32,000 bases of DNA from Sinorhizobium meliloti (GCF_017876815.1 NZ_JAGIOS010000002.1:120001-152000); one strand, 5' to 3'. Shown: positions 6,802 to 32,000, counted from the first letter of the stretch. Notes: generated by a model from the sequence alone, not told the origin. Made by a program: numbers and translations.

Positions 6802-8295
6802 CTATTCCACCTGATGTGCCATGGCGGCAAAGAGGGCGGCCTCGCTCAATTCCTTGCGCGGCAGCACGGCGACCGAGGTTCCGTCGCTGAGCACGGTCAC
6901 CCGGTCGGCCGCCGCCAGCAATTCCTCCAGTTCGGACGAAATCATCAGCACGCCGAGGCCTTCGTCTGCGAGCCGGCGCAGGAGGCGCAGGATTTCGGAT
7001 TTGGCGCCGATATCGATACCGCGGGTCGGCTCGTCGACAATCAGAAGCTTGGGATCGGTACAGAGCCAACGCCCGAGCAGGACTTTCTGCTGATTGCCGC
7101 CGGAAAGTTCCTTGATAGGCTGGTCGGGCGAGGTGCATTTGATGGCGAGCGCCGTGATGTAGCGCTCGACGATTTCATCCTGGCGGGCGCGATCGACGAT
7201 GCCGGCGCGGGCGAGCTTCGGCAGAAGCGCGAGCGTCATGTTTTCGCGGATGCTCATATCGGGAATGATACCGTCGACCTTCCGGTCCTCGGCGACGAGC
7301 CCGATACCGTCGGCAATGGCGTCCGCGGGCTGGCGATAGGCGCGGGCTTCGCCATTGTAGCGAATTTCGCCGCGCTGCAGCCGGTCCGCGCCAAAAATCA
7401 GGTTGGCCGTTTCGGTTCGCCCGGAGCCGAGCAGGCCGGCAAGCCCGGAGATCTCGCCTTCGCGCACCGTAAGGCTCACATCCCGCACGCGAACGCCAGC
7501 GCCCGCATTCCGGACCGATAGCCGGACCGGTCGCTGCGCGCCCTCGTCCGCGTCCTTGGCGATCGCTTCGAAGGCCGCGAGTTCTTTGCCCAGCATATGG
7601 CGCACCAATGCGAGCTTCGGCATGTCCGCCATTGCGGCGGTCGCCACGGTCTTGCCGTCACGCATGATGGTGACCCTGTCGCAAATCCGGTAGAGCTCCT
7701 CGAGACGATGGCCGATGAAGACGACGGAAACGCCGCCGCGCTTGAGCGTCCTTATGGTGTCGAAAAGAATGCCGACTTCCCGCTCGTCGAGGGAAGAGGT
7801 CGGTTCGTCCATGATGACGAGGCGTGCCTTCTGCGTCACGGCGCGCGCGATAGCGACCATCTGCCGGGTAGCGGCGCTGAAGCCGGCGACAGGTTGATCG
7901 ACGTCGATTTCCAGATTGAAGGCCCGCAGGACGGCGGCGGCGCCATCGCGCATCGCGCGCCGGTCGATCAAGCCGAAGCGGCGGGGTTCGCGCGACAGAT
8001 AGATGTTCTCGGCGACGGAGCGCTGGGGGGCGAGGTTGATCTCCTGGTAGATCGTCGCGATGCCGCGGGCCTGGCTCTCCGCCGGCATGCTGAAGGATAC
8101 GCCCTCTCCCGCAAAGACGACCGCACCCTCGTCGCGCCGGTACGCGCCGGTCAATATCTTGATGAGGGTCGACTTGCCCGCGCCGTTCTGACCGACGAGT
8201 GCCATCACCTCGGCTTCCCCGACTTCGAGAGAAGCCGCACGAAGCGCCGGAATGCCGTTGAACGATTTGCAGATGCCCTGCATGGACAGAAGCAT
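6802..8295 (-). CDS. ytfR: Sugar ABC transporter ATP-binding protein with two nucleotide-binding domains (YtfR-like)
   Basis: 497 aa. Walker A motif GQNGAGKST, a second P-loop GLLGSGRTE, and the signature LSGGNQQKV. SD GGGAGGA lies upstream of ATG 8295. Confidence 0.9.
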   Translation of the reverse strand: MLLSMQGICKSFNGIPALRAASLEVGEAEVMALVGQNGAGKSTLIKILTGAYRRDEGAVVFAGEGVSFSMPAESQARGIATIYQEINLAPQRSVAENIYLSREPRRFGLIDRRAMRDGAAAVLRAFNLEIDVDQPVAGFSAATRQMVAIARAVTQKARLVIMDEPTSSLDEREVGILFDTIRTLKRGGVSVVFIGHRLEELYRICDRVTIMRDGKTVATAAMADMPKLALVRHMLGKELAAFEAIAKDADEGAQRPVRLSVRNAGAGVRVRDVSLTVREGEISGLAGLLGSGRTETANLIFGADRLQRGEIRYNGEARAYRQPADAIADGIGLVAEDRKVDGIIPDMSIRENMTLALLPKLARAGIVDRARQDEIVERYITALAIKCTSPDQPIKELSGGNQQKVLLGRWLCTDPKLLIVDEPTRGIDIGAKSEILRLLRRLADEGLGVLMISSELEELLAAADRVTVLSDGTSVAVLPRKELSEAALFAAMAHQVE

Positions 8296-8351
8296 AAGTC
8301 CTCCCGATGCCGATCTGTCTTTATCGCGGCCGATTTCGCAGCGATTGCGGA

Positions 8352-8390
8352 CTTCGCCAACCGACCGAACGATCCCGCCGGTTGGCGAAG
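8352..8390 (-). promoter_or_regulatory. Intercistronic stem-loop immediately 3' of the binding-protein gene
   Basis: Perfect 12-bp arms, CTTCGCCAACCG (8352-8363) and CGGTTGGCGAAG (8379-8390), with a 15-nt loop. It starts 4 nt after the SBP stop codon. No U-tract follows on the minus strand. Confidence 0.5.
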
Positions 8391-8394
8391 AATG

Positions 8395-9378
8395 TCAGTA
8401 GGCGTTGGCGAGTTCGGCAGCCGCGTTTGACGAGTCGTAGAACTTGTCCTCGTTTATGACCATGGGATCGATCTTCTCGCCCTTGGCGTAACGCAGCATC
8501 GTCTCGAAGGCCTTGGGTCCGAAGCGTGGGTTGCACTCGACCACCGCAGCGATCTTTCCGTCGATGACCGCCTGAACCGCCTCCTTGCCGCCGTCGATCG
8601 ACAAGACCAGCACATCCTTGCCCGGGACCTTGCCCGCCGCCTCTATTGCCGCAATGGCACCGATCGCCATCTCATCATTGTGGGCATAGACGATGTCGGC
8701 ATCCGGGTGCGCCTGCAACAGGGCCTCGGCGACCTGCCGGCCCTTGTCGCGTGCGAAATCGCCCGACTGAGAAGCGACGATCTCGAAGCCGCCTGCCGCC
8801 TTGATCGTCTCGTCGAAACCTTTCTTGCGGTCGTTGGCCGGCGACGAGCCGGTCGTTCCCTCGAGCTCGATGATCTTCGATTTGCCGTTGGCATTCTTGA
8901 CCAGCCACTCGGCGATGCGCTTGCCCTCTTCTATGAAATCCGAGCCGATGAAGGTCACGTAGTCCTCGCCAGCCTTGGCAAGCGACGGATCGACGCTGCG
9001 GTCGAGCAGGATGACGGGAATGCCGGCCTTCTTGGCGGCCATGACGGCGGGGATCAACGGCTTTTCTTCGCGCGGCGCCAGGAAGATCAGGTCCACGCCC
9101 TGGGCGATCATGGAGTTGACGTCGGCCACCTGCTTGGCCGCGGACCCGGCGGCGTCCGTATAGACGAGTTGATGGCCGAGCTTCTCAGCCTCGGCTTTCA
9201 TGCTGTTTGTCTGGGCGATGCGCCAGGGATTGTTGGATTCCGTTTGCGCGAAACCGACCTTATAGGTCTCCTTCTGCGCCAGTTTTGGCAGTTCCGCGAA
9301 AGCGACGGTGCCGGCGATGGCGATTGCGCCGGCCGCCGTGGCCGCAAGCATGAACGCGCGACGTGAAATCCTGTTCAT
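8395..9378 (-). CDS. ytfQ: Periplasmic sugar-binding protein (YtfQ/galactofuranose-binding-protein-like)
   Basis: The ORF track gives 8395..9723. I trimmed it to ATG 9378 (MNRISRRAFMLAATAAGAIAIAGTVAFA, a signal peptide), which is preceded by GGGAGGAGAG. The mature part resembles E. coli YtfQ by eye (VGF.Q..S..PWR, LLDRS.D, ELEGT.GSS...DRKKGF, QSGDF.R.KG, YAHNDEMAIGAI.AI). Confidence 0.85.
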   Translation of the reverse strand: MNRISRRAFMLAATAAGAIAIAGTVAFAELPKLAQKETYKVGFAQTESNNPWRIAQTNSMKAEAEKLGHQLVYTDAAGSAAKQVADVNSMIAQGVDLIFLAPREEKPLIPAVMAAKKAGIPVILLDRSVDPSLAKAGEDYVTFIGSDFIEEGKRIAEWLVKNANGKSKIIELEGTTGSSPANDRKKGFDETIKAAGGFEIVASQSGDFARDKGRQVAEALLQAHPDADIVYAHNDEMAIGAIAAIEAAGKVPGKDVLVLSIDGGKEAVQAVIDGKIAAVVECNPRFGPKAFETMLRYAKGEKIDPMVINEDKFYDSSNAAAELANAY

Positions 9379-19148: not shown

Positions 19149-19204
19149 GGATATGCATGCAGCGAGGCGGAGGCCGGGTTCCGTCACCGGGCGGGCGTTG
19201 ATTC

Positions 19205-20197
19205 ATGGGTGCGAACGAAATCGAACTTGCCGAGAAGCTGGAGGCCGCGGAGCCGGGCAGGGGGCGTGCAGCCGATACGCCCGCTGATATCCCCGCCAAG
19301 GGGATGCGGGACGTCTTCTGGCGGGTGTTTTCCGAAATAGGCGAAGAGCGGGTCATGCTGATAGCCGCGGGTGTAAGCTTCTATCTTCTGCTGTCGCTCT
19401 TTCCTGCGCTGGGTGCCCTCGTCTCGATCTACGGGCTCGTCGCGGACCCATCCGAAATCGGCACCCATGTCGGTATCCTGCAGGCGCTTCTGCCGGCAGA
19501 CTCCTACGGGCTGATCATGGACCAGTTGGAGACCCTGACGACGCAGAAGCCGTCCACTCTCGGCATCGGTTTCTTCGTGAGCCTGTCGATCTCCCTGTGG
19601 TTGGCAGCCAACGGCATCGCCGCCCTCTTCGATGCGATGAACGTGGCCTATGGAGAAAGAGAAAAGAGAGGCTTTCTGTCGAGAACCCTCCTGTGCCTCG
19701 CGTTCACCTTCGCGGCACTCCTCTTCGCGGTCGCGCTGATCGCGGCGATCGGCGTCGTGCCAGCCGTACTGGCCTATGTGTGGGTCGACCGTTGGGTCGA
19801 GCTCGTGACCCGAGCGGCGAGATGGCCCGCGGTACTGCTCCTCGTCACCTTCGGCACCATCCTCATCTATCGTTTCGGGCCGAGCCGCGAGCGGGCGAAA
19901 CTGCGGTGGCTGAACTGGGGCGCGGTGTTCAGCACCTTGTTTTGGTTGGCCGCCTCATGGCTCTTTTCTTATTACCTGGAACATTTCGCCAACTACAACG
20001 CGACATACGGCGCTCTCGGCGCGCTCGCCGGTCTCATGACATGGGTGTGGATCTCGGTGATGATTCTCATCATCGGCGCACTCATCAATGCCGAACTCGA
20101 ACACCAGACGGCGGTCGATTCGACGACGGGCAAGCCGCTCCCGTTGGGCGAGCGCGGTGCTCACGTCGCCGACACCATCGGCAAGGCGGCCGACTGA
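19205..20197 (+). CDS. YihY/BrkB-family integral membrane protein (paralogue 1)
   Basis: 330 aa. Polytopic, with conserved blocks FP.L..LVSIYGL, YGPSRE..KLRW and FANYNATYGALGA. The N-terminal GRGRAAD.P..IPA.G block is shared with paralogue 2, which supports this start. Confidence 0.85.
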   Translation: MGANEIELAEKLEAAEPGRGRAADTPADIPAKGMRDVFWRVFSEIGEERVMLIAAGVSFYLLLSLFPALGALVSIYGLVADPSEIGTHVGILQALLPADSYGLIMDQLETLTTQKPSTLGIGFFVSLSISLWLAANGIAALFDAMNVAYGEREKRGFLSRTLLCLAFTFAALLFAVALIAAIGVVPAVLAYVWVDRWVELVTRAARWPAVLLLVTFGTILIYRFGPSRERAKLRWLNWGAVFSTLFWLAASWLFSYYLEHFANYNATYGALGALAGLMTWVWISVMILIIGALINAELEHQTAVDSTTGKPLPLGERGAHVADTIGKAAD

Positions 20198-20294
20198 TCA
20201 GCCGCAGCATGCGCCGGTTCGCATCGCAAGGAACAATCGCCGCTTCTTACGCATTTCAGGAAGACCGGGACTTGCGGTACTGGAGGATTATGCC

Positions 20295-20813
20295 ATGGCA
20301 GATCGTGACCTCTTGGGTCTGGCGGCCAGCGCGAAGATCGGCGGGCATCCGATCCATCCGATGCTCGTTCCCTTTCCGATCGCGCTTCTTGTCGCAACGT
20401 TCATATGTGACATCGTTTATCTTGCGAACGGAAATTCATTCTGGGCAGACGTGTCTATGTGGTCGCTGGGTGCAGCCATCGTGATGGCAGCCCTCGCTGC
20501 TCTCGCCGGACTGACGGATTTCCTCGGGAATGCCCGTATTCGAGCGATCAACGATGCCTGGAAGCACATGATCGGAAACATTGTCGTCGTACTCTTCGCG
20601 ATCGCCGGTTTTTGGCTGCGTTATGAGAACGGTTCCGTTGAGGCCGTCTGGCCCTGGGGCTTTCTACTGTCTCTCGTCACCGTCCTGCTGCTTCTCTACA
20701 CCGGCTGGAAAGGCGGGGAGCTCGTCTATCATCATCGGGTCGGCATGGACCCCGAGGCTGAGGACGGCGCTGCCACGCCGTCCATGACAAGGCACAGGAC
20801 GAAGCACATCTAA
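20295..20813 (+). CDS. DUF2231-family membrane protein (paralogue 1)
   Basis: The ORF track gives 20088..20813. I trimmed it to ATG 20295 (MADRDLLG...), which is preceded by TGGAGGA. It has the GGHPIHPMLVPFPIALL motif and four predicted TM helices. Confidence 0.75.
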   Translation: MADRDLLGLAASAKIGGHPIHPMLVPFPIALLVATFICDIVYLANGNSFWADVSMWSLGAAIVMAALAALAGLTDFLGNARIRAINDAWKHMIGNIVVVLFAIAGFWLRYENGSVEAVWPWGFLLSLVTVLLLLYTGWKGGELVYHHRVGMDPEAEDGAATPSMTRHRTKHI

Positions 20814-20830
20814 GAGGCCCTGTCGAGCCA

Positions 20831-20861
20831 GGCGGCAACCAGCCGATTTGCGGTTGCCGCC
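20831..20861. terminator. Hairpin between convergent genes (possible bidirectional terminator)
   Basis: Perfect 10-bp arms, GGCGGCAACC (20831-20840) and GGTTGCCGCC (20852-20861), with an 11-nt loop. It lies between the DUF2231 stop and the 3' end of the isochorismatase-like remnant. The T-tract is weak. Confidence 0.5.
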
Positions 20862-20870
20862 CGTATCATT

Positions 20871-21496
20871 CTATTCGCTGCGGTCGTAGAAGAACTGGAT
20901 CCCAGGCGTGCCGTCCGTTTCGATGAACAGGCTCATGAAAGCGGGGACGGTTTCACTGCGCTTCCATTCCCTCTGCAGCCCGCAAAAGAGCTGGACGGCG
21001 CCGGCCTGCTCGACGCGACGCAACGCGGCGTCGTGCGCGGCAACCGACGTGCCGCCGACCGCATCCACCCGCACATAAACTTCATAGCCTTCCGCCAACG
21101 GATTGAATGCCGGGAAGGTCAGGCAAGCCTCGGTCCAGAGCGCCGTCATGATCAGCTTCTTGCGGCCGGGGTCGTCGACCGCCTTGCGGAATTCGACATC
21201 CTCCCAGCTGTTGATGCTGGTGCGGTGGTAAATCGGGTAGCCGTCCAGCGCTTTCGGAATATGCGGAACGGGCGGCTTGTTGAGCCCGGTCTGCACGTTG
21301 ACCGTGGAATGAACGACCGGCAAACCGTTTTGCGGTCGCCCGGTCCGGTGCGGAAGTTCCACTCTCCGCCAGGTAGAGACGGTGCGGGCGCGTCAGCCGT
21401 CCCAGCTCCGAAAAAGCCCATGTCCGTGGGATTGAAGGTGTCACCGCAAACATTGCCCGCAAAAGCTTTGCGATCTCCAACGTAGCGTCCTAACAA
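20871..21496 (-). pseudogene. Isochorismatase-family (YcaC-like) hydrolase remnant, frameshifted at the N terminus
   Basis: The C-terminal ~150 codons are intact in one frame (INSWEDVEFRKAV, KKLIMTALWTEACLTFPA, EVYV.VDAVGG). N-terminal pieces (TFNPTD, FRTGPG) are found only in other frames (ORFs 21152..21496 and 21082..21480). The DHQ catalytic-Asp block is not recognisable. The total span equals one YcaC-length gene. Confidence 0.5.
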
Positions 21497-21503
21497 TAGA
21501 ACG

Positions 21504-22011
21504 ATGAAAGACTTGAACGACCTCTATTACTTCGTCCAGGTGGTCGACCACGGCGGCTACGCCGCTGCCGTGCGCGCCAATGACATTCAGAAGTCGGAGC
21601 TCAGCCGGCGCATCCAGCAATTGGAAGAACGGCTGGGTGTGCGACTGCTAAACCGGTCTTCCCGTCGCTTTTCCGTGACCGAGATCGGACGCGAATATTA
21701 TGATCGCTGTGTCGCCATGCTGGTCGAGGCCGAGGCGGCCGACGAGATGATCGCGCAAGTCCGCTCCGAGCCGCGCGGCATCGTCCGCGTGAGTTGCCCG
21801 GTGGCGCTGATCAACTTCGCTGCCGACGATGATGGTTTGGCGCCAGGTCGAATCGGGCCAACTCGTTCACGTCCTGCCGGACTGGCGCCCACCCGCCGGC
21901 ATCGTCCATGCCGTTTTCCCTTCGCGCCTCGGACTACTGCCTTCAGTGCGGCCACTGCTTGATTTCCTGGCGGCGGAATGCGCCGAGGCGAGGAAGCGGG
22001 CTGTCGTCTAG
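21504..22011 (+). pseudogene. LysR-family regulator remnant with an internal deletion and frame change
   Basis: The HTH and linker are intact in ORF 21504..21962 up to GIVRVSCPVALINFA. The LysR C terminus (GQLVHVLPDW....AVFPSR..L.P.VRPLLDFL) appears in another frame (21829..22011). The span is only ~169 codons against ~300 for the family. Confidence 0.6.
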
Positions 22012-22077
22012 GGTGGTTCCACGGAACATTTCCGCCCGTTCAGCCATTCTACAAAGCTCAAGGGCGAGGTCTAAGCT

Positions 22078-22578
22078 TTGGATCAACCACCAGTTCGACC
22101 GGACGGATTGCAGATCGAAGAGCATCGCGCTTTTCAGGAGTCTTTCTGGAAAGTAGAGCGCGTCGCATGGATTGTTTTTGGCCTGACGTTGCTTGCCGCC
22201 GTCCTGGGCGTTACGGGCTCGCGGGGCTGGCTTCAGAGACAAGCCGTGACGTTCGCCGGCGGCTCTGTCGATGTGCCGCGTTTCAGCCGCTGGGAGGCGT
22301 CCGACACGCTGAACGCGTCATTGGCCGGCGGCGGGAACGAACGTCGCCTGATCTTGTCGCCTGAATTCTTCAGGAGCTTTCAGGTGGAGGACATGGATCC
22401 GCCACCGATCGCCGCCGAAGCAGGCAATGAAGGGCTGGTATACCGCTTCCGGTCCGCTTCGCGACAGCCCCTTGTGCTGACTCTGCACCTTCGCGCCCAA
22501 AGTCCGGGTGTCGTTTCCTATCGAATAGGCATGGATGACGAGCCAGCGCAGGCAGTGCGAACGATCGTCTGGCCCTAG
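22078..22578 (+). CDS. Hypothetical single-pass membrane protein
   Basis: 166-aa ORF with a TTG start and GAGGT about 10 nt upstream. One TM helix (VAWIVFGLTLLAAVLGV). No family recognised. GC3 is lower than in neighbouring genes. It is followed by a terminator-like hairpin. Confidence 0.45.
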   Translation: MDQPPVRPDGLQIEEHRAFQESFWKVERVAWIVFGLTLLAAVLGVTGSRGWLQRQAVTFAGGSVDVPRFSRWEASDTLNASLAGGGNERRLILSPEFFRSFQVEDMDPPPIAAEAGNEGLVYRFRSASRQPLVLTLHLRAQSPGVVSYRIGMDDEPAQAVRTIVWP

Positions 22579-22634
22579 AGCGGGATGAGGAAAAGTGTGC
22601 GCGGTTTTCCGCCCGCATCCCGCTCTAACTTTTT
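22576..22634 (+). terminator. Terminator-like hairpin carrying the GGAAAAGTGTG...CGGTTTTCCG repeat core
   Basis: 12-bp perfect arms, TAGAGCGGGATG (22576-22587) and CATCCCGCTCTA (22616-22627). Inner pairing GGAAAA/TTTTCC. A T5 run follows at 22630-22634. The stop codon of the upstream ORF lies in the left arm. Confidence 0.5.
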
Positions 22635-22650
22635 GGAATCGGTCACGTTA

Positions 22651-22681
22651 ATGCTTTTAGGTCGACCCGACCTAAAAGCAT
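22651..22681. repeat. 14-bp perfect inverted repeat; second palindrome of a composite intergenic element
   Basis: ATGCTTTTAGGTCG (22651-22664), ACC, CGACCTAAAAGCAT (22668-22681). It ends 9 nt before the GGAG SD of the DUF421 gene. Confidence 0.6.
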
Positions 22682-22701
22682 CGTGATCTAGGAGATACGT
22701 C

Positions 22702-23142
22702 ATGGACTCCGTCGTTCGCGGTATTACGATCTATTTTATACTCCTTGCCGCGCTCCGGCTTTCCGGCCGGCGCACGGTTGCTCAGATGACGACCTTCGAC
22801 TTCGTGCTGCTGCTCATCATCGCGGAGACGACCCAGCAGGCCTTGCTTGGCGACGACTTCTCCATTGTCAACGCAACATTGCTCATCCTGACGCTCTTCG
22901 GCGTCGATATCGTTCTCTCCTACCTCAAGCAATGGTCGCCGAAGATCGCTCTGTTCCTCGACGGAACGGCGACGGTGCTCATCGCAGACGGCAAGGTCGA
23001 CGAACGTGCCTTGAAAAGAGCCCGGGTCAACATCGAGGACATACTTGTCGCCGCCCGGGAGCAGCAGGGCCTGGCTCGCCTCGACCAGATCAAATTCGCG
23101 GTTCTCGAGGCCGACGGGGGCATAAGCATCATACCGAGATGA
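22702..23142 (+). CDS. DUF421 (YetF-like) membrane protein
   Basis: 146 aa. N-terminal TM helices, G.R...Q.T.FD.V..L.I... motifs, and a C-terminal soluble domain (VLIADGKVDERALKRARVNIEDIL...R). SD GGAG. Confidence 0.75.
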   Translation: MDSVVRGITIYFILLAALRLSGRRTVAQMTTFDFVLLLIIAETTQQALLGDDFSIVNATLLILTLFGVDIVLSYLKQWSPKIALFLDGTATVLIADGKVDERALKRARVNIEDILVAAREQQGLARLDQIKFAVLEADGGISIIPR

Positions 23143-23183
23143 CGCGGGGCTCGGTTCCGGAAGAGGGCGAAATGACATCCTTA

Positions 23184-23453
23184 CTATTTCGATCTCACCG
23201 TGCAACGGTACTCCCCCTTGACACAAGCGATCTTGGGTGAGGAGCACTCGGCCACTCCGCCGGTCAACGAACAAACAGAGCATTGGTCATTAAACTCGAG
23301 GCAATCGGGATTGGCATCAACGAAATTCTTCATGCCAAGGCTTTGCCTTCGATCTTCTCTCTTTTCGTGCTGCATATTCCCAGCGCTTGCCGGAAGATAC
23401 GGAATAGCCGCAAACAAAAATATGCCGGTTATTCGCAGCGTCGCAGGTTTCAT
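23184..23453 (-). CDS. Small secreted Cys-rich hypothetical protein
   Basis: 89 aa. Signal peptide MKPATLRITGIFLFAAIPYLPASA. The mature ~65 aa contain 6 Cys (DC..F.DQC.VC.......C.....C......C). It lies in an AT-richer pocket. The SD is weak (GAAGAG). No family recognised. Confidence 0.4.
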   Translation of the reverse strand: MKPATLRITGIFLFAAIPYLPASAGNMQHEKREDRRQSLGMKNFVDANPDCLEFNDQCSVCSLTGGVAECSSPKIACVKGEYRCTVRSK

Positions 23454-23573
23454 GATCCAGCTCTTCTAAATCCGAAAACGCACGACGAGAGCATGGAGCA
23501 CTTCTTATGAGAAAATAAGCTGCGCCGTGAAATAAGGGTTTCACATCGCGATGCCGAATAGCGGAGAATGCAA

Positions 23574-23598
23574 GGAACAAGCCAACGCTTAGCGTGTT
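23574..23598 (+). promoter_or_regulatory. EcfG/RpoE2-like promoter motif upstream of yihY paralogue 2
   Basis: GGAAC (23574-23578), N16, TGTT (23595-23598). It shares the extended -35 sequence GGAACAAGC with the motif at 19124. It lies 78 nt upstream of ATG 23676. Confidence 0.45.
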
Positions 23599-23675
23599 CG
23601 AATGCCATCCGCGATCGCCCGCCGGTAAGGCCGATCAGGGGCACGGCGAACTTTCGAACGCGCGAGGACAATCAG

Positions 23676-24662
23676 ATGAAATCCGGTGACGCAAAGAGGG
23701 GAACCGACGAACAGGCACAAGAAGCGGGCAGGGGACGCGCGGCCGACAGCCCGGGCGAAATTCCCGCGAGGGGCCTGCGTGACGTCTTCTGGCGCGTGGT
23801 TTCGCAGATCAGCGAGGACAGGATTTCGCTCATTGCGGCCGGCGTCACCTTTTATGTGCTCCTCTCCGTATTTCCAGCGTTGGCCTCGCTCGTTTCCATC
23901 TACGGTCTCGTTTCCGATCCGGCCACGATCGCAGAGCAGGCTACGTTGCTCGCGGCCGTCCTTCCGGCCCAGTCGCTTCAAATGATGACCGATCAATTGG
24001 AAACCCTGTCGTCCCAGAAAACCTCCAGCCTGAGCTTCGGCTTCATAGCCGGACTGCTCTTCGCGCTCTGGAGCGCACGCAACGGCGTGGGGGCGCTCTT
24101 CGAGGCGATGAATATCGCTTACGACGAGACCGAAAAGCGCAGCTTCATCCGGCTGACTCTATTGAGCATCGGCTTCACGCTGGCCGGTTTGATCCTGACC
24201 GCCGTCCTCATCGCGGCCATCGCGGTATTGCCGGCAGTGCTGGCCTTTCTCCACCTGGAACTGGAAGGTCTTCTCAGATTCGTACGCTGGCCCGTGATGC
24301 TGTTGCTCATAGCGGCGGGCATCACCCTGATCTATCGCTACGGTCCGAGCCGGGAGCCAGCCAAACTCAGGTGGCTTACCTGGGGTGCGGCCCTGAGCAC
24401 GATCTGCTGGCTCGTCGCATCCCTGGCGTTCTCGTATTACATCGACAATTTTGCGAACTACAATGCCACGTATGGCGCTCTCGGTGCGCTGATCGGCTTC
24501 ATGCTCTGGATCTGGATATCAACCATGATCGTCATCATCGGTGCTGAACTCAATGCCGAGCTGGAACATCAGACGGCGAGGGATTCAACGACAGGGCGGC
24601 CCAAGGAGCTCGGGAAGCGCGATGCCTATGTCGCCGACACGGTCGGCGACACCGAGGATTAG
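23676..24662 (+). CDS. YihY/BrkB-family integral membrane protein (paralogue 2)
   Basis: The ORF track gives 23568..24662. I trimmed it to ATG 23676 (MKSGDAKRG...), which is preceded by GAGGA. It is collinear with paralogue 1 over the whole length. Confidence 0.85.
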   Translation: MKSGDAKRGTDEQAQEAGRGRAADSPGEIPARGLRDVFWRVVSQISEDRISLIAAGVTFYVLLSVFPALASLVSIYGLVSDPATIAEQATLLAAVLPAQSLQMMTDQLETLSSQKTSSLSFGFIAGLLFALWSARNGVGALFEAMNIAYDETEKRSFIRLTLLSIGFTLAGLILTAVLIAAIAVLPAVLAFLHLELEGLLRFVRWPVMLLLIAAGITLIYRYGPSREPAKLRWLTWGAALSTICWLVASLAFSYYIDNFANYNATYGALGALIGFMLWIWISTMIVIIGAELNAELEHQTARDSTTGRPKELGKRDAYVADTVGDTED

Positions 24663-24670
24663 ATCGCGGA

Positions 24671-26224
24671 TTATTGCTGTTGCTCCGGTGATCCCTGTTC
24701 CGTAGCCCTCGGCAGAGTAGCGGGCGCGACATCGGTCTGCGGCGGCTCCGGAGGCGTGGTACCAGCTGCGGGAGGAGCGGCCCCTCCGGCTGTTCCTCCT
24801 GTCTCACCCGCCGGTGGGCTGGCTTCGCTGGTGACCGGGCTATCCCTCTGACCGTCCGTACCGACAGGGCCCGGCGTCACCCTGCCGTCGGCTCCGGCGA
24901 CGCGCCAGACGGTGTTGCCGGCGTCGTCGGCAACGAGCAGCGCCCCGGTCCCGTCGATCGCTACGCCGACCGGACGACCGCGTGCCTGATCGCCTTCGAT
25001 GAAGCCGGTCACGATGTCCTGAGCCTTTCCGGCCGGCCGGCCGTTTTCGAAGGGGACATAGACGACCTTGTAACCGTTGAAGCTGCTGCGGTTCCAGCTC
25101 CCGTGCTCGCCTATGAAGGCGCCGTTGGCGAAGGGCTCCGGCAAGGCGGAGCCGTTGGAGAAGACCAGACCCAGGGCGGCGACGTGGCTGGAAAGGGCGT
25201 AGTCCGGCGGGATCGCTTTCTCGACCATGTCCGGCCGCGGCGGATGGACCCGCTCGTCCACATGGGCGCCGAAATAGCTCCATGGCCAGCCGTAGAAGGC
25301 GCCTTCCTGCACCGAAGTCATGTAGTCCGGCACGAGATTCGGCCCCAGTTCGTCACGCTCGTTGACGACCGTCCAGAGCACGCCGGTCTCGGGATGGAAG
25401 ATCAGCCCGTTCGGATTGCGCAGGCCGGACGCGAAGACGCGGGCCGCACCCGTTTCCCGATCTACCTGCCAGATTGCAGCACGGCCTTTCTCGGCCTCGA
25501 GCCCGCGCTCGGCTACGTTCGAGTTGGAGCCGACGGAGGCATAGAGGTAGCGCCCGTCGGGGCTGAGGGCCAGGTCCTTGGTCCAGTGATGGTTGATCGG
25601 GCCACCCGGAAGCGGCGTAAGAACCCGCGGCTCGCCGGTGATCTCCGCCTGCCCGAGCTGGTAGGGGTAGGCAAGGATTGCATCGGCTGCCGCCACGTAA
25701 AGCGTTCCGTCGTGCCACGCAACTCCGAAAGGAGAATGGAGCCCTGTCAGCAGGTCGTGGCGTTCGTCCACCGTTCCGTCGCGATCGGTGTCGCGGAGCA
25801 GCGTGATCAGGTTGCTTTCCTTTTCGGGTCCGGCACCACCGCCATGGGCCATGGACATGACCCAACCTCGGATCATGTCCTTCGGACGCTCTATCGGCTT
25901 GCCCGAGGGTTCGCGCGATTGAACGACGAGAACGTCGCCGTTCGGCAGCGTATGGACGGTCCTCGGATTGGCAAGGTCCTTCGCGTAGGCGGCAATGACG
26001 AGATTGTCGGGAACGCTCGGTGTCTTGCCGTCCTGCCAGCCGACGACCTCGGCGACTTTCATGTCCGGCAGGAGCTCCGATGTCGGTTCCGGCAGGACCG
26101 GATCGGGGCCGATCTGCTGCGAGACATCGAAATCCGCGCCGTCATCGCTGCAGCCTGCGAGCGCCAGGAGGAGAAGGCCGGTTCCGATGAAGAATCTTGC
26201 ACCCAAGAAGGCAGAGCTATTCAT
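24671..26224 (-). CDS. PQQ-dependent sugar (sorbosone/glucose) dehydrogenase family lipoprotein with a Pro/Thr/Gly-rich C-terminal tail
   Basis: 517 aa with lipobox LLALAG|C. Beta-propeller family blocks are present (HSPFG.AW.DG.LYVA, INHHWTKDLA, GSNSNV, GLRNPNGL.FHP.TG.LW..VNERDELG...VPDY, GAFYGWPW). Its start overlaps the upstream DUF2231 stop by 8 nt. Confidence 0.8.
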   Translation of the reverse strand: MNSSAFLGARFFIGTGLLLLALAGCSDDGADFDVSQQIGPDPVLPEPTSELLPDMKVAEVVGWQDGKTPSVPDNLVIAAYAKDLANPRTVHTLPNGDVLVVQSREPSGKPIERPKDMIRGWVMSMAHGGGAGPEKESNLITLLRDTDRDGTVDERHDLLTGLHSPFGVAWHDGTLYVAAADAILAYPYQLGQAEITGEPRVLTPLPGGPINHHWTKDLALSPDGRYLYASVGSNSNVAERGLEAEKGRAAIWQVDRETGAARVFASGLRNPNGLIFHPETGVLWTVVNERDELGPNLVPDYMTSVQEGAFYGWPWSYFGAHVDERVHPPRPDMVEKAIPPDYALSSHVAALGLVFSNGSALPEPFANGAFIGEHGSWNRSSFNGYKVVYVPFENGRPAGKAQDIVTGFIEGDQARGRPVGVAIDGTGALLVADDAGNTVWRVAGADGRVTPGPVGTDGQRDSPVTSEASPPAGETGGTAGGAAPPAAGTTPPEPPQTDVAPATLPRATEQGSPEQQQ

Positions 26225-26669
26225 AACCGCTCACTCCGGATTGCCTGCGATAGAGGGTGGCGCGGCCAAGCAAAGCGAAGAGGATCGTCAGAAGCACCGT
26301 CGCCGCGGAGAGGATCAACCCGTAGGGCACCACAGCCGTCCAGCCATCGGCGGCATGGACGAGGTTGTTGACGAAGGCGAGGCCGAAGACGAGGATGTAG
26401 CCGACGACATGGAGCCAAACCGCCCCTTGCCTGCGTCGCTCCCTTCGAAACAGGAACTCCAACACACTGGCTAGACCGGCGATCACGCCGGCGATGATAC
26501 CGGCAAAGAGCAGCCAGGCGGAGAAGTTCTGCCACATGAGATGTCCCGTCTGCCAGAAGGCGATATCAGTCAGAAGGGCGAGCGTAAAACAGACGACTGG
26601 AAACGGCACGAGCAACGAATGGACCGGGGTGGTGACGGTCGCGGCAGTCGATGCGGAATTCAGGCTCAT
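26217..26669 (-). CDS. DUF2231-family membrane protein (paralogue 2)
   Basis: 150 aa with the VHSLLVPFPVVCF motif and four predicted TM helices. SD AGGAGG lies 5 nt from ATG 26669. Confidence 0.75.
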   Translation of the reverse strand: MSLNSASTAATVTTPVHSLLVPFPVVCFTLALLTDIAFWQTGHLMWQNFSAWLLFAGIIAGVIAGLASVLEFLFRRERRRQGAVWLHVVGYILVFGLAFVNNLVHAADGWTAVVPYGLILSAATVLLTILFALLGRATLYRRQSGVSGYE

Positions 26670-26697
26670 CGGTGCCTCCTGTTCGGTCGACGGTTGA

Positions 26698-26722
26698 AAC
26701 CTCGGGCCTGCCTATTTGTTCC
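26698..26722 (-). promoter_or_regulatory. EcfG/RpoE2-like promoter motif upstream of the DUF2231-dehydrogenase operon
   Basis: The minus strand reads GGAAC (26722-26718), N16, GGTT (26701-26698). The GTT is at canonical spacing. It lies about 28 nt upstream of ATG 26669. Confidence 0.4.
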
Positions 26723-26918: not shown

Positions 26919-27500
26919 ATGGGGCCGTTGGCGACGCATATGGCAGTGCATATCCTGCTGATGAACCTCGCCGCGCCCCTGGCTGCATTCGCCGTGACGC
27001 GGGTTCGGCTGCAGCGGCGGGAAATCGCCGGGTGGGCCCTGGCGCTTGCGACATTTGCGCAGATCGCCGCCCTCTGGGCCTGGCATGCGCCGCCTTCTCT
27101 CAACCGGGCACTGGAATTTCCCACGGTTCATTTGCTGATGAATGCCAGCCTGTTCCTGACCGCATTCCTATTCTGGCGGGTGGTCCTGCGTCTTCATGGT
27201 CAACGCTCCTGGCAACCGATCGTCGCCCTTCTGATAACCAGCAAGCTCTATTGTCTTCTCGCCGTGCTCTTCGTCTTCGCGCCGAGAGCGCTCTACCCCG
27301 CTTTCGCTGCATCCCACGCGGCGCATGCGACCGGAGCCGTGAACGCCACTTTGGCCGATCAGCAGCTCGCGGGGCTTATCATGCTGGTCGCCTGTCCGGT
27401 GACCTATGTTCTCGCAGGGATCGTGATTGCTGCGCGCTGGCTTCTGACGATGGAGAAAGACGAGGCCGGATCCAGAACAGGTGCAGCGGCGTGGACCTGA
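26919..27500 (+). CDS. Cytochrome c oxidase assembly factor, caa3-type CtaG-like membrane protein
   Basis: The ORF track gives 26811..27500. I trimmed it to ATG 26919, which is preceded by GGAGGAGGGGGA. N-terminal HMAVHILLMNLAAPL motif and a polytopic profile. It is shorter than Bacillus CtaG, so the assignment is tentative. Confidence 0.55.
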   Translation: MGPLATHMAVHILLMNLAAPLAAFAVTRVRLQRREIAGWALALATFAQIAALWAWHAPPSLNRALEFPTVHLLMNASLFLTAFLFWRVVLRLHGQRSWQPIVALLITSKLYCLLAVLFVFAPRALYPAFAASHAAHATGAVNATLADQQLAGLIMLVACPVTYVLAGIVIAARWLLTMEKDEAGSRTGAAAWT

Positions 27501-28615
27501 GAAACCTGCACTGGACGGCCGTTGCGAAAATCGTCGGGCTCGGCGCCGTGCTGCTCGTGGCCGCGGGCGTCGTGTTCGTCTGGTCCGGGGTCTACAACGT
27601 CGCGGCCTCCAAGGACCATCTGCGGATTACGACCTGGATCCTGACGTTGATCCGCGAACGATCGATCGCCAACCGAAGCTTTACGATCGAGGTTCCGCCG
27701 CTCGATGACGACGGCATGATCCGACTTGGGGCATCCCATTTCGAAGGTGCGTGCGTAGCGTGCCACAACCGCCCCGGCGAAGAGATAAACCCGATCGTCA
27801 GCGGCATGCTGCCCCCGCCTCCGGATCTGATGGACATCGGCAAGCGCCGCCCGCCGGAGGAGATCTTCTGGATCGTCAAGCACGGCCTCAAATATACCGG
27901 CATGCCCGCATGGCCGAATACGCGGCGCGACGACGAGGTCTGGGCCGTCACGGCATTCCTCGCGAGCCTGCCCGCAACGGCAGGCAATTATCGCGAACTG
28001 GCAGGCCTCACGCGCAGCCAGGCCAGTAGCGATGAGCGATCCGTGGGCGGCAGCGCATTGACCGCCTGCGGGCGCTGCCATGAACGCGAAGGCACAGGCA
28101 CGAACGGCGACCGTATCCCGCGGCTCGCGGGGTTACCGGAAGCCTATCTCCTGCGCAGCCTCCAGGAATATGCGAAGGGGACCCGCCCGAGCGGTGCCAT
28201 GGAGCCGGTCGCCGACCTTCTGTCGGAGGACGCCATGCGGGAGCTGGCAGCGTATTATTCCGCGCTTCGGCCAACCGCCGGAAATCAATCGGCGCCTCCT
28301 GATCCCGAGCAACTCAGGCGTGGCGAAGCCATTGCCAATCGCGGCATCGCGCATCAGGGCGTACCGGCCTGCCTGAGCTGCCATTCCGGACGTCAATCGC
28401 AGCAGTTTCCGGTGCTCGCCGGCCAGCATGCCGAGTACATACAGGAGCAGATACGGCTCTGGCGGCGCGGAGGGCGGATCGGGACCCCTTATGGGAGGAT
28501 CATGACGGCGGTTGCCGGCGCACTGGACGAGGCGCAGATCGAAGACGTCGCCGCCTATCTGGGTTCACTGCCTCCGGGAAGCGCCACGGCTCCGATGACG
28601 GAGGTGAACCGATGA
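27491..28615 (+). CDS. Membrane-anchored trihaem c-type cytochrome (N-terminal monohaem domain plus c4-like dihaem module)
   Basis: The ORF track gives 27032..28615. I trimmed it to GTG 27491 (MDLRNLHW...), with AGGTG 8 nt upstream, overlapping ctaG by 10 nt. One TM helix, then three CxxCH motifs (CVACH, CGRCH, CLSCH). The c4-type motif PVLAGQHAEYI is present. Confidence 0.8.
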   Translation: MDLRNLHWTAVAKIVGLGAVLLVAAGVVFVWSGVYNVAASKDHLRITTWILTLIRERSIANRSFTIEVPPLDDDGMIRLGASHFEGACVACHNRPGEEINPIVSGMLPPPPDLMDIGKRRPPEEIFWIVKHGLKYTGMPAWPNTRRDDEVWAVTAFLASLPATAGNYRELAGLTRSQASSDERSVGGSALTACGRCHEREGTGTNGDRIPRLAGLPEAYLLRSLQEYAKGTRPSGAMEPVADLLSEDAMRELAAYYSALRPTAGNQSAPPDPEQLRRGEAIANRGIAHQGVPACLSCHSGRQSQQFPVLAGQHAEYIQEQIRLWRRGGRIGTPYGRIMTAVAGALDEAQIEDVAAYLGSLPPGSATAPMTEVNR

Positions 28616-29595
28616 GGCTCGCCCGATATTTCGCGGCGGCGAGCGCTCTCGCGCTGCAGGGCTGCGCCGGACTGCAGTCCGCCCTCGATCCTTCCGGCGC
28701 GGAAGCCGAGCGCATCGGCACGCTCAGTTGGCTGCTGGTCCTCTTCTCGACCGCCATTCTCGTCGCGGTCTGCCTGATCACGGCGGTCGCGCTTTTCGGC
28801 GGTGAGCGCTGGCGTGCCCGCATCGCGGGCGAAAGGATAGTCATCGGGGGCGGGCTCGTTTTCCCGATCCTGGCTCTCAGCGTCCTGCTGATTTACGGCT
28901 TCTACCTTATGTCACCTGGCACCACCGAGGCCCGCTCGCAGGGCGCATTGCGCATCGAGGTCGTGGGCGAGCGCTGGTGGTGGCGGGTGACCTATGTGGA
29001 CGAGGCCGGACGCCGCATCGAGAGCGCCAACGAAATCCGGCTGCCTGTCGGGCGGCCGGTGGAATTGGAACTGACATCGGCAGACGTTATTCACAGCTTC
29101 TGGGTGCCGCGGCTCGCCGGAAAGCTCGACATGATTCCCGGCCATACCAACACGCTGACGCTTCAAGCGACGAAGGCCGGTATCAGTCGCGGCCAATGTG
29201 CGGAGTATTGCGGCGGCCCGCATGCCTTCATGTCCTTTTACGTGATCGCCATGCCGGAAGACCAGTTTTCGTCCTGGCTCGCAGGCGAAGCCGGCGACGC
29301 CTCGGCTGCGAAGCCGGATCAGGCCGCAGGGCAGGCGCTTTTCCTCTCCTCCGGCTGCGCCGCATGCCACCGGGTCCGCGGCACGGATGCCCGGGGTACG
29401 ATCGGCCCCGACCTCACGCATGTGGGCAGCCGGCACTCGCTTGCCGCCGCGACGCTCGAAAACGACGTCGCCGCCTTCGTCCGCTGGATCCGCGACGGCC
29501 AGCACGTGAAGCCGGAAAATCTGATGCCGCCATTCGAAATCTTCACCGACGACGAATTGCGGCAGCTCGCCGCCTATCTGGACCAGTTGAGGTGA
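28612..29595 (+). CDS. coxB: Cytochrome c oxidase subunit II with a fused C-terminal cytochrome c domain (caa3-like)
   Basis: CuA ligands HSFWVP and CAEYCGGPHAFM. C-terminal CAACH haem c motif. ATGA start/stop overlap with the upstream cytochrome gene. Confidence 0.9.
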   Translation: MRLARYFAAASALALQGCAGLQSALDPSGAEAERIGTLSWLLVLFSTAILVAVCLITAVALFGGERWRARIAGERIVIGGGLVFPILALSVLLIYGFYLMSPGTTEARSQGALRIEVVGERWWWRVTYVDEAGRRIESANEIRLPVGRPVELELTSADVIHSFWVPRLAGKLDMIPGHTNTLTLQATKAGISRGQCAEYCGGPHAFMSFYVIAMPEDQFSSWLAGEAGDASAAKPDQAAGQALFLSSGCAACHRVRGTDARGTIGPDLTHVGSRHSLAAATLENDVAAFVRWIRDGQHVKPENLMPPFEIFTDDELRQLAAYLDQLR

Positions 29596-29598
29596 CCT

Positions 29599-30672
29599 AT
29601 GCTTGACTTCGCCGGCCTTGGACTTTGGCTGAATCTCGCGATTTTCGCGGGGGCGGCCGTGGCAGTCTGGATGGCAGGAGTCAAAATCACTGGTTATGCC
29701 AATGCGATCAGCGAGAAGACGGGAGTAGGCCAAGCCTTCATTGGCGTCGTGCTTCTCGGCGGCATCACTTCCCTGCCGGAGCTGGCGGTAGGCGTGACCT
29801 CGTCGCTCAGCGGTGACGCCAGTCTCGCGGTCAACAGCATCCTCGGCGGCATCGCCATGCAGGTGGCGATCCTCGCCCTTGCCGACATGCTGATCGGCCG
29901 CCGGGCACTGACCTCGGTCATTCCCGACCCGGTCGTCATGCTGCAGGGCGGATTCAAAATCCTTCTCCTGTCGATCGTCGCCGCCTCGATCGTGGTGGGC
30001 GACGTGCCGGTGCTTTTCTCGGGCCTGTGGATGTGGCTGCTTGCAGCGGTCACGGGCTTCGGCATGTGGGTCTTGTCACGGACGCAGCGCGACAGGCCCT
30101 GGATAGCGAATGACGAGGAGGTCACGCCGGAGAAGGAGGAAGAGAGGGCGCGGAAGGAGGCCGAGGACAGCAAGAAGAAATCGCTGCGTGAGGTGGGCTG
30201 GGCGACTGCGGGCTGCGGCGCCGTCATCATCGTCGCAGGCTATCTGCTGTCGCGTTCGGGAGACGCGATCGCCGAAGCGACCGGACTCGGCCAGAGCTTC
30301 ATCGGTGCGGTCCTCGTGGCGATTGCCACGTCGCTGCCGGAAGTCAGCACGGTGTTCAGCGCCACGCGTGCCGGCCTCTATACCATGGCCATGTCGGACA
30401 TCTTCGGCACGAACCTCATAGATCTGTCCCTTCTTTTCATCATCGATGTCACCGGAGGTGCCGACGCGGTGATGAACGGCGCCGGGCGCTTCGAGGCGTT
30501 TGCAGCGCTGATCGCGATCACGGTCACGGCGATCTTCTTCATCGGACTGGTCGAACGGCGGGACCGGACAATCCTCAGGATGGGTTACGACTCCTTTGCG
30601 GTCCTCAGCGTTTACCTGGCGGGGCTGGTCGTCCTCTATTTCCTGCGCGACACTGGCGGTGGAGGCGGATGA
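29599..30672 (+). CDS. CaCA-superfamily (Na+/Ca2+ exchanger / YrbG-like) cation antiporter
   Basis: 357 aa with a 5+5 TM layout. Two alpha-repeat signatures, GGITSLPEL and IATSLPEV, are separated by a charged loop (EEVTPEKEEERARKEAEDSKKK). It starts 3 nt after the coxB stop, with GAGG as SD. Its stop overlaps the ctaD start (ATGATG). Confidence 0.8.
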   Translation: MLDFAGLGLWLNLAIFAGAAVAVWMAGVKITGYANAISEKTGVGQAFIGVVLLGGITSLPELAVGVTSSLSGDASLAVNSILGGIAMQVAILALADMLIGRRALTSVIPDPVVMLQGGFKILLLSIVAASIVVGDVPVLFSGLWMWLLAAVTGFGMWVLSRTQRDRPWIANDEEVTPEKEEERARKEAEDSKKKSLREVGWATAGCGAVIIVAGYLLSRSGDAIAEATGLGQSFIGAVLVAIATSLPEVSTVFSATRAGLYTMAMSDIFGTNLIDLSLLFIIDVTGGADAVMNGAGRFEAFAALIAITVTAIFFIGLVERRDRTILRMGYDSFAVLSVYLAGLVVLYFLRDTGGGGG

Positions 30673-32000
30673 TGGAACTGCCAAATCCCGATCCCCGGCC
30701 CGAAGGCGAGGTCCGCGAACTGGAGCGCATCTGGGCGACGCCGCGCGGTTGGCGGCTGGTGACGGCTGTCAACAATACGGTGATCGGTCTTCTCTATCTC
30801 GGCGTCGCGTTTCTCTTCTTCCTGATGGCCGGTCTGCTGGCCGTCGTGATGCGCACGCAGCTCGCCCTCGGCGACAATCGCCTCGTCGACCAGGACCTCT
30901 ACAATCAGATGTTCACGGTCCATGGCACGACGATGATGTTCCTCTTTGCGGTGCCGGCGGTCGAGGCGCTCGGCGTCATGCTGCTGCCGCAGATGCTGGC
31001 GGCGCGCGACTTGCCCTTTCCGCGCCTCAGCGCCTTCGCCATCTGGGCCTACGTGGTCGGCGGGCTGGTCTTCTTCTCGACCATCTTCTACGACCTCGCG
31101 CCGAAAGGCGGCTGGTTCATGTATCCGCCGCTGACGCTCATGGAGTATTCGCCGGGTGACAACGCCGATTTCTGGCTGCTCGGCATCGGCTTCATCGAGA
31201 TTTCGGCGATCGCCGGGGCAGTGGAGATCGTCGTTGGCGCGCTGAGGACGCGGCCGCCGGGCATGTCGCTCGCCAAGATGCCGATCTTCGCCTGGACGAT
31301 GCTGATCTTCGCCAGCATGATCATGTTCGCCTTCCCGGCGGTGATCCTGGCGACGATGATGCTGGAGATCGAGCGGGCGTTCGGATGGCCCTTCTTCACA
31401 GCCGCACTCGGGGGAGATCCGCTGCTCTGGCAGCATCTCTTCTGGTTCTTCGGGCACCCGGAAGTCTACATCATCTTCCTTCCGGCCGCGGGCCTCGTCT
31501 CGATGATGGTACCGACGATGGCCCGCACGCCGCTCGTCGGCTATCACCTGATCGTCGTCGCCCTGATCGGCACCGGGTTTTTCAGCTTCGGGCTCTGGGT
31601 GCACCACATGTTCACGACAGGCATTCCGGCGCTGAGCCTCGCCTTCTTCTCCGCCGCCAGCATGGCGGTCGCCGTTCCCTCGGGCATCCAGGTCTTTTCC
31701 TGGATCGCGACCATCGCCGCGGGACGGGAGCGCTTCCGGATCACGACCGCATCGCTGTTCATTCTCGGCTTCCTGTTCATTTTCACCCTTGGAGGGCTTA
31801 CCGGCGTCATGGTGGCCATGGTGCCCTTCGACCATCAGGTACACGACACCTATTTCGTCGTTGCACATTTCCACTACGTGCTGATCGGCGGTTTCGTATT
31901 TCCGCTGTTTGCGGCGATCTATTACTGGATGCCGCTCTTCAGCCGCCGGATGCTCTCGGAACGGCTGGGCCGGTGGGTGTTCTGGCTGATCTTCATCGGC
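30669..32000 (+). CDS. ctaD: Cytochrome c oxidase subunit I (A-type haem-copper oxidase), 3' end outside the window
   Basis: It is absent from the ORF track because the frame has no stop before nt 32000. My manual translation reads MMELPNPDP... and contains TVHGTTMMF (haem a His), WFFGHPEVYIIFLP (CuB His and cross-linked Tyr), WVHHMF and VAHFHYV. Confidence 0.9.
   Translation, partial: MMELPNPDPRPEGEVRELERIWATPRGWRLVTAVNNTVIGLLYLGVAFLFFLMAGLLAVVMRTQLALGDNRLVDQDLYNQMFTVHGTTMMFLFAVPAVEALGVMLLPQMLAARDLPFPRLSAFAIWAYVVGGLVFFSTIFYDLAPKGGWFMYPPLTLMEYSPGDNADFWLLGIGFIEISAIAGAVEIVVGALRTRPPGMSLAKMPIFAWTMLIFASMIMFAFPAVILATMMLEIERAFGWPFFTAALGGDPLLWQHLFWFFGHPEVYIIFLPAAGLVSMMVPTMARTPLVGYHLIVVALIGTGFFSFGLWVHHMFTTGIPALSLAFFSAASMAVAVPSGIQVFSWIATIAAGRERFRITTASLFILGFLFIFTLGGLTGVMVAMVPFDHQVHDTYFVVAHFHYVLIGGFVFPLFAAIYYWMPLFSRRMLSERLGRWVFWLIFIG

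Follow-up and report, generated by a model that had tools for sequence, protein, structure and literature searches.

A CaCA-superfamily cation exchanger gene conserved between the subunit II and subunit I genes of a predicted caa3-type oxidase operon in Sinorhizobium meliloti and other Proteobacteria

The stretch of DNA analysed here (the window) covers 32,000 nucleotides (nt) of Sinorhizobium meliloti (GCF_017876815.1, NZ_JAGIOS010000002.1:120001-152000) and belongs to the pSymB megaplasmid. Its segment 28000-32000 matched many S. meliloti pSymB records at 100% identity, and pSymB of strain 1021 at very nearly that level. At positions 29599..30672 of the plus strand, an ATG-initiated gene of 357 codons encodes a cation exchanger of the CaCA superfamily with 10 transmembrane helices, as identified by Pfam, NCBIfam, profile and structure-model comparisons. 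It is the fourth of six co-oriented genes, overlapping or nearly abutting, in the order ctaG, tri-haem cytochrome c, coxB fused to cytochrome c, CaCA, ctaD (subunits I+III) and a small subunit. The linkage of the exchanger gene to the oxidase genes is conserved, real and apparently undescribed, both gene families being already known.

The host operon is predicted from its gene content to encode an alternative caa3-type oxidase, matching the "COX operon type a" of Degli Esposti et al. (2014). It combines a CuA subunit II fused to cytochrome c, a I+III fusion, a tri-haem cytochrome c and a Caa3_CtaG protein. The first gene (26919..27500, plus strand) encodes a ctaG-like copper-insertion factor (Caa3_CtaG, Pfam PF09678, 65.9 bits), the start of which was adopted from the GenBank annotation of an identical strain; ctaG was found upstream in most of the linked loci described below. 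The second (27491..28615, plus strand), annotated as a c-type cytochrome, encodes a membrane-anchored tri-haem cytochrome c with three Cytochrome_CBB3 stretches and the motifs CVACH, CGRCH and CLSCH. The coxB gene (28612..29595, plus strand) encodes subunit II with a C-terminal cytochrome c domain (Pfam COX2 and Cytochrom_C, CuA motif CAEYCGGPHAFM, haem motif CAACH) and scored 147.5 against the CoxB family TIGR02866, for a cut-off of 147.7. On the other side of the exchanger gene lies the 5' part of ctaD (30672..32000, plus strand, continuing past the window end), with a Pfam COX1 match of 435 bits. The position between subunits II and I, as given in the initial annotation, was thus borne out by the domains of both flanking genes. 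In strain 1021, ctaD is an 841-amino acid I+III fusion open reading frame, the fusion part lying beyond the window end. The gene 3' of ctaD (8172-8543 of the strain 1021 locus L002, also beyond the window) encodes a 123-amino acid hydrophobic membrane protein with no Pfam match, which was present in 44 of the loci searched and is probably the small subunit IV of the oxidase. In pSymB of strain ml59 (locus L001, 12588-13802, just past the window end), ctaD is annotated with 631 amino acids instead of the 841 of strain 1021. The transposase gene of an ISRm31 element (IS701-like) is located 20 nt downstream of the shortened gene, and on the far side of the element come the separated 3' end of ctaD and the small subunit gene. 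The operon, thus interrupted, is dispensable for strain ml59.

The junctions on both sides of the exchanger gene are tight. The coxB stop codon TGA (29593-29595) is followed by three nucleotides (cct) and by the exchanger ATG at 29599. At the other end, the exchanger stop codon TGA (30670-30672) is embedded in GGATGATGG, with in-frame ctaD ATG codons at 30669 and 30672; in the GenBank annotation of the identical strain, ctaD begins at the position that corresponds to 30672. A Shine-Dalgarno-like GAGG (29589..29592, plus strand), in the end of coxB, stands 6 nt before the exchanger ATG, and a GGAGG (30661..30665, plus strand), coded by the Gly-rich exchanger tail, stands 6 nt before the ctaD ATG at 30672. 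The ribosome-binding sites of the exchanger gene and of ctaD are therefore buried in the preceding coding sequence. No promoter-like (sigma-70) site was present inside the operon, and terminator-like sites inside it were no commoner than in shuffled sequence. The general-stress promoter motif of the EcfG/RpoE2 type (GGAAC-N15-18-CGTT) was absent upstream of the operon, its three matches in the window corresponding to chance level, and an Rfam scan of the whole window gave zero matches. Both junctions agreed with the initial annotation, and its proposal of co-transcription and probable translational coupling is supported. A recent insertion of the exchanger gene was considered and rejected, the composition profile showing no sign of it: the G+C content of the gene (0.63-0.65) is the same as that of its neighbours.

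The exchanger protein carries the two alpha-repeat signatures already recognised by the initial annotation, GGITSLPEL at residues 54-62 and IATSLPEV at residues 242-249. The core of the alpha-1 repeat (G54-G-I-T57-S58-L-P-E61, 29758..29781, plus strand) aligned to T50, S51 and E54 of NCX_Mj, the exchanger of Methanocaldococcus jannaschii, and that of the alpha-2 repeat (A241-I-A-T244-S245-L-P-E248, 30319..30342, plus strand) to T209, S210 and E213. T57, S58, L59, P60 and E61 in the first repeat, and T244, S245, L246, P247 and E248 in the second, were invariant in an alignment of 20 relatives. Pfam Na_Ca_ex (PF01699) matched two stretches of the chain (69.2 bits for a cut-off of 24.9). The best NCBIfam match was to the YrbG type (TIGR00367 / PRK10734, residues 34-340), with scores of 73.1 and 53.4 for equivalog cut-offs of 179.65 and 432, respectively. 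The CAX Ca2+/H+ families TIGR00378 and TIGR00846 gave 22.6 and 23.5 bits, for cut-offs of 211 and 317, and the repeats are of the TSLPE type, not the CAX-type GNAxE. With the YrbG and CAX scores so far under the curated cut-offs, the protein is a member of the CaCA superfamily that corresponds to no named equivalog.

The profile of the 20 relatives matched NCX_Mj among solved structures (E approximately 1e-7). An AlphaFold2 model (mean pLDDT 76.7, pTM 0.77) contained ten long helices, of which helices 2 and 7 were broken at the repeats, and a Foldseek search with the model gave NCX_Mj as the best match (TM-score 0.77-0.79 on the target), then CAX_Af, VCX1, NCLX and YfkE. The model thus predicts the ten-helix inverted-repeat CaCA fold. 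The HMMER alignment of NCX_Mj to the window protein was used to map the ion ligands, which we take to be the twelve NCX_Mj residues A47, T50, S51, E54, S77, N81, A206, T209, S210, E213, S236 and D240; they corresponded to G54, T57, S58, E61, G84, Q88, A241, T244, S245, E248, T271 and D275, respectively. Nine of the twelve thus count as retained, with T271 in place of S236 among them. The ion-coordinating glutamates expected from the initial annotation are E61 and E248. Among 58 oxidase-linked proteins, T57, S58, E61, T244, S245, E248, T271, N79 and D267 were 97-100% conserved, so the Ca2+-binding core appears intact.

The conservation of the arrangement was examined with a family-profile scan on one genome per GTDB species. 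This gave 235 loci with relatives of the exchanger, of which the best 80 were taken with 6-kb flanks and searched with the window's five operon proteins; a plasmid collection was also examined. The initial annotation had left room for an arrangement unique to this strain, which is refuted by the survey: in 56 of the 80 loci, distributed over three classes, the exchanger gene was immediately flanked by coxB on its 5' side and by ctaD on its 3' side, all on one strand and with tight junctions. Three more loci fitted and were incomplete, owing to a contig end or a damaged coxB; in one of these, Methylocaldum, ctaD lies directly downstream of the exchanger gene and the coxB match is displaced and partial. 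Oxidase genes were within 6 kb in another arrangement at 7 loci and were not found in the 6-kb flanks at the remaining 14. The linked Alphaproteobacteria comprised Sinorhizobium/Ensifer, Mesorhizobium, Devosia, Pelagibacterium, Aquibium, Nitratireductor, Chelatococcus, Stella, Reyranella, Inquilinus and Hyphococcus. The Betaproteobacteria were represented by three Nitrosospira, Paucimonas, Noviherbaspirillum and several metagenome-assembled genomes (MAGs) of Burkholderiales, and the Gammaproteobacteria by Methylobacter marinus and one MAG.

The junction statistics were established on 57 linked loci, the 56 above and a plasmid locus of Rhizobium sp. Q54. From the coxB stop to the exchanger start the median distance was 3 nt, with extremes of -8 and +36, and from the exchanger stop to the ctaD start it was 4 nt, with extremes of -4 and +43. 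Stop and start codons overlapped in 25 of the 57. The same gene order was observed on plasmids of Rhizobium sp. Q54, of Aquibium oceanicum and of S. meliloti LMB1, where it is a second copy. Two complete exchanger-containing operons per genome were seen in S. meliloti LMB1 (L090), Devosia pacifica (L025/L042) and one MAG (L015/L018); the second copy of LMB1 is carried by the conjugative accessory plasmid pC, and its exchanger is 79% identical. All-against-all clustering of the flanking open reading frames revealed no conserved neighbour past the six operon genes, the largest extra clusters being an SDR gene in 9 loci and a GH15/trehalase-like gene in 7. The conserved unit therefore consists of six genes.

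Neighbour-joining placed the linked exchangers in one large group of the tree. A basal clade was unlinked, its gene being located mostly right after an approximately 840-amino acid Epimerase-SPW-VKOR fusion gene. At L005, L067, L070 and L071 (Sulfitobacter, a Rhizobiaceae MAG, Hyphobacterium) the basal exchanger gene directly follows the gene of an approximately 820-846-amino acid protein, for which Pfam recognised, at L067, an NAD-dependent epimerase domain, SPW repeats and a VKOR domain. A few unlinked sequences (L037, L052/L068, L072 and L076/L084) were nested within the linked group and are best read, from their placement in the tree, as copies that left the operon. Pairwise distances gave correlation coefficients of 0.69 for the exchanger with CtaD and 0.77 for the exchanger with CoxB, close to the 0.81 between CoxB and CtaD, and the mean divergence was 0.45 for the exchanger and 0.47 for CoxB. 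In the exchanger and CtaD trees alike, Nitrosospira nested among Devosia-like sequences and Methylobacter grouped with Hyphococcus. This concordance indicates that the operon, exchanger included, moved between classes as a unit. The exchanger is under purifying selection, with a ratio of nonsynonymous to synonymous substitution rates (dN/dS) of 0.06-0.14 among Sinorhizobium/Ensifer orthologues. The constraint is stronger than on coxB (0.11-0.23); the values were 0.14-0.25 in the cytochrome c gene and 0.02-0.06 in ctaD.

Two situations were found in which the oxidase genes do without the exchanger. In sister type-a operons of Azospirillum and Sphingobium, the CtaD of which is approximately 70% identical, coxB overlaps ctaD directly. 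In S. sojae CCBAU 05684, the exchanger gene of plasmid pSJ05684b (L089 6798-7001) is reduced by a natural deletion to an in-frame remnant of 67 codons. What is left comprises the first 51 residues and the Gly-rich tail, with both the ribosome-binding site and the TGATG overlap of the ctaD junction preserved, and none of the other five operon genes is damaged. The oxidase design therefore does not require the exchanger, and the ctaD junction evidently is required. The description of the exchanger gene as "inserted", given in the initial annotation, holds relative to the sister operons; within its own clade it does not, the gene being an old co-inherited member of the operon.

The S. sojae remnant bears on one of the alternatives, in which the exchanger gene is a passenger. 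It would have landed once between coxB and ctaD and been kept since its removal disturbs ctaD translation, sharing with respiration nothing except regulation. That the remnant retains exactly the start region, the ribosome-binding site and the overlap implies that the junction matters for ctaD, as this scenario expects, and the function of the exchanger is evidently separable from that of the oxidase. A passenger would not explain, however, the strong purifying selection on the whole protein, with all ion ligands included, nor its retention across Alpha-, Beta- and Gammaproteobacteria. A clean in-frame loss is possible, as S. sojae demonstrates, yet rare, and at two loci the gene was re-positioned and still remained in the operon: a Woeseiaceae MAG (L082), where the order is ctaD, small subunit, CaCA, and Virgifigura deserti (L064 5040-8057), where it is ctaD, small subunit, ZIP-like gene, CaCA, ctaG. 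We consider the passenger scenario very doubtful.

The order in Virgifigura is of interest for a second alternative, which makes the exchanger a biogenesis helper alongside CtaG. It would carry Ca2+, Mg2+/Mn2+ or some other divalent metal out to the periplasmic side, to be inserted into the oxidase or its cytochromes. The operon opens with the gene of a copper-insertion factor, and in Virgifigura the exchanger gene, at the 3' end, stands between the ZIP-like gene and ctaG, overlapping the latter by 4 nt. A-type oxidases have Mg/Mn and often Ca sites on their outer face. The initial annotation had evoked the Ca2+/Na+ site near haem a. This link was not supported: the CtaD alignments to the Paracoccus denitrificans and Rhodobacter sphaeroides enzymes start only after the helix I-II loop that holds the site, and in the closest solved relatives, which are actinobacterial and Bacillus enzymes, this loop is short, as it is here. 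Against a biogenesis role also stand the sister operons, the oxidases of which assemble without an exchanger, and the normally non-limiting supply of periplasmic Ca2+ and Mg2+. The Virgifigura order is moreover a single case, and the match of its ZIP-like transporter is weak (29 bits, under the Pfam cut-off). Such a role seems rather improbable.

The oxidase itself has peculiarities. The six His ligands, the Glu of GHPEVY and the cross-link Tyr of subunit I were present in 68 of the 69 members of the CtaD clade, that of the window included. D132, E286 and Y288 were kept in the clade. In all 69 sequences, with or without an exchanger gene in the operon, the D-channel asparagines N121, N139 and N207 were replaced by V/I, S/T and E, respectively, the host oxidase carrying N121V, N139S and N207E in place of the canonical residues. 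The positions, given in R. sphaeroides numbering, were mapped through an alignment with M. smegmatis. The Rhodobacter enzyme is decoupled by the mutations N139D and N207D, so that proton pumping by the host oxidase may be atypical. The substitutions were considered as a correlate of the presence of the exchanger, and this was rejected, the sister operons without exchanger carrying the same ones.

Conversion of the gradient made by the oxidase and an accessory subunit were other possible roles named in the initial annotation. It is conceivable that the exchanger belongs to the oxidase as a stoichiometric subunit or is bound to it as a fixed partner, so that O2 reduction would be coupled, directly or via a local proton circuit, to the translocation of Ca2+ or Na+. 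The location of the gene between those of subunits II and I+III, with predicted coupled translation in the 57 loci, suggests this, and gene order in operons tends to follow assembly order. The exchanger evolves at nearly the same rate as CoxB and travels with the operon in horizontal transfers, and an enzyme with such an unusual D-channel may itself pump atypically. These arguments are opposed by the sister operons, which have the same D-channel pattern without the exchanger, by the in-frame deletion in S. sojae and by the persistence of escaped copies with no oxidase genes found nearby. No residue separated the oxidase-linked from the unlinked exchangers: 46 of the 60 highly conserved positions were shared, with zero specificity positions, and the linked proteins thus have no signature of their own. 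Among the best 150 of 13,234 representatives no fusion to an oxidase domain was found, the five longer proteins having no extra Pfam domain. A fixed subunit is, all things considered, unlikely. The more specific proposal that the exchanger and an atypical caa3 oxidase devoid of the canonical D-channel asparagines form a physical complex, in which O2 reduction drives Ca2+ or Na+, directly or via a shared local proton path, is in our opinion improbable. If true, a haem-copper oxidase and a CaCA protein would together make up the bacterial equivalent of a cation pump driven by redox chemistry.

We propose instead, giving it about an even chance of being right, that the protein is an autonomous CaCA exchanger, co-expressed with and energised by this oxidase, and a long-standing member of its operon. 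In this model, the protein would be a working secondary exchanger resembling NCX_Mj and YrbG, probably transporting Ca2+ against Na+ or H+. A single mRNA would carry the exchanger gene with those of subunits II and I+III, the ribosomes moving from coxB to the exchanger gene and on to ctaD, and the linkage would ensure that the exchanger is made in matching amounts whenever the alternative oxidase is switched on. Powered by the membrane potential or by the pH gradient that the oxidase generates, it would perform Ca2+ export or Na+/H+ exchange. The result would be a module for energy plus ion homeostasis, possibly serving under stress or stationary-phase conditions. We favour independent transport over a catalytic role within the oxidase because copies that escaped from the operon persist, because linked and unlinked proteins are not separated by any residue, because the sister operons and S. 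sojae do without the exchanger, and because no oxidase-domain fusion was found among the representatives inspected.

Several observations weigh against an autonomous exchanger energised by the oxidase. Correlated trees follow from co-inheritance and are silent on function. Lying between the genes of two catalytic subunits, with codons that overlap, is more usual for the subunit of a complex than for a transporter that is only co-regulated. We know of no demonstrated Ca2+ transport phenotype for E. coli YrbG, the classical bacterial relative. The ion specificity is another difficulty. Among the 58 linked proteins, Q88, which replaces N81 of NCX_Mj, was 98% conserved; position 84 (S77 of NCX_Mj), a Gly in Sinorhizobium, was Ser in 59%; and position 275 (D240 of NCX_Mj) was Asn in 66%. 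With such differences in residues that shape the Na+ sites, sequence alone cannot give the ion specificity.

The wider neighbourhood of the operon is variable. A gene of the GSDH family (sorbosone/glucose dehydrogenase-like) and a gene for a DUF2231 membrane protein, overlapping by 8 nt, occupy positions 24671-26669 of the window on the minus strand, divergent from the operon. Their presence beside the operon was restricted to Sinorhizobium/Ensifer (8 loci for the first, 7 for the second), which places them outside the conserved module. A link to pyrroloquinoline quinone (PQQ)/Ca2+-dependent dehydrogenases was envisaged and rejected, given this confinement of the pair. From approximately 19200 to 26700 of the window (L001 1-6670), YihY/BrkB-family and DUF2231 genes each occur twice in approximately 7 kb, together with isochorismatase and DUF421 genes, and in other genomes SDR and GH15/trehalase-like genes flank some of the linked operons. 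The neighbourhood resembles a stress-gene island, which is not conserved.

Haem-copper oxidase operons are among the best-studied bioenergetic clusters, and a conserved secondary exchanger inside them was not found described. What YrbG-like CaCA proteins do in bacteria is still debatable, and little is understood of how bacterial cells handle Ca2+; the clade coupled to this one oxidase offers a concrete physiological context for testing them. S. meliloti is genetically tractable, and the natural in-frame deletion of S. sojae could be used as a control. Should the proteins interact, respiration and ion transport would be linked in a new way; without an interaction, the operon would still be a clean module for energy plus ion homeostasis, spread by horizontal transfer.

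Genome annotations name the gene "sodium:calcium antiporter". A full-text literature search returned no paper on an exchanger or antiporter in this operon; subscription journals were outside its scope, and an earlier remark is possible. The COX operon type a (PMC4013037) is defined as caa3-like, with COX1 fused with COX3 and with tri-haem c cytochromes, and S. meliloti 1021 is listed in the supplementary table of COX operon types of that work. It shares with the host operon Caa3_CtaG, the tri-haem cytochrome c, the COX2-cytochrome c fusion and the COX1-3 fusion of approximately 841 amino acids. The words "exchanger" and "antiporter" are absent from its text and supplement, figures aside.

Among known systems, NCX_Mj (PDB 3V5U, 5HXC) has in common with the exchanger described here the 10-helix inverted-repeat fold and a TSLPE in both repeats. 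The overall identity is only approximately 15%, the loop between transmembrane helices 5 and 6 is longer and highly charged in the S. meliloti protein, and its gene belongs to an oxidase operon. The YrbG-type proteins (TIGR00367 / PRK10734) are of the same superfamily and have the same repeat signature; the scores far below the family cut-offs suggest that the exchanger belongs to a separate subfamily. To our knowledge, E. coli yrbG has no linkage to respiratory genes. The caa3 oxidase of Thermus thermophilus is of the A2 type, with no equivalent of E286, whereas the host oxidase keeps GHPEVY. Its solved structure (PDB 2YEV) combines a I+III fusion and a subunit II that is likewise fused to cytochrome c, its subunit I matching that of the operon with E = 3.9e-92, and it has no CaCA partner, unlike the host operon. 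The mitochondrial NCLX, a structural match of the model at rank 18, is eukaryotic and much larger, and its gene is not linked to those of an oxidase. The resemblance is purely conceptual, that of a CaCA exchanger residing in a respiratory membrane and driven by the gradients of the chain.

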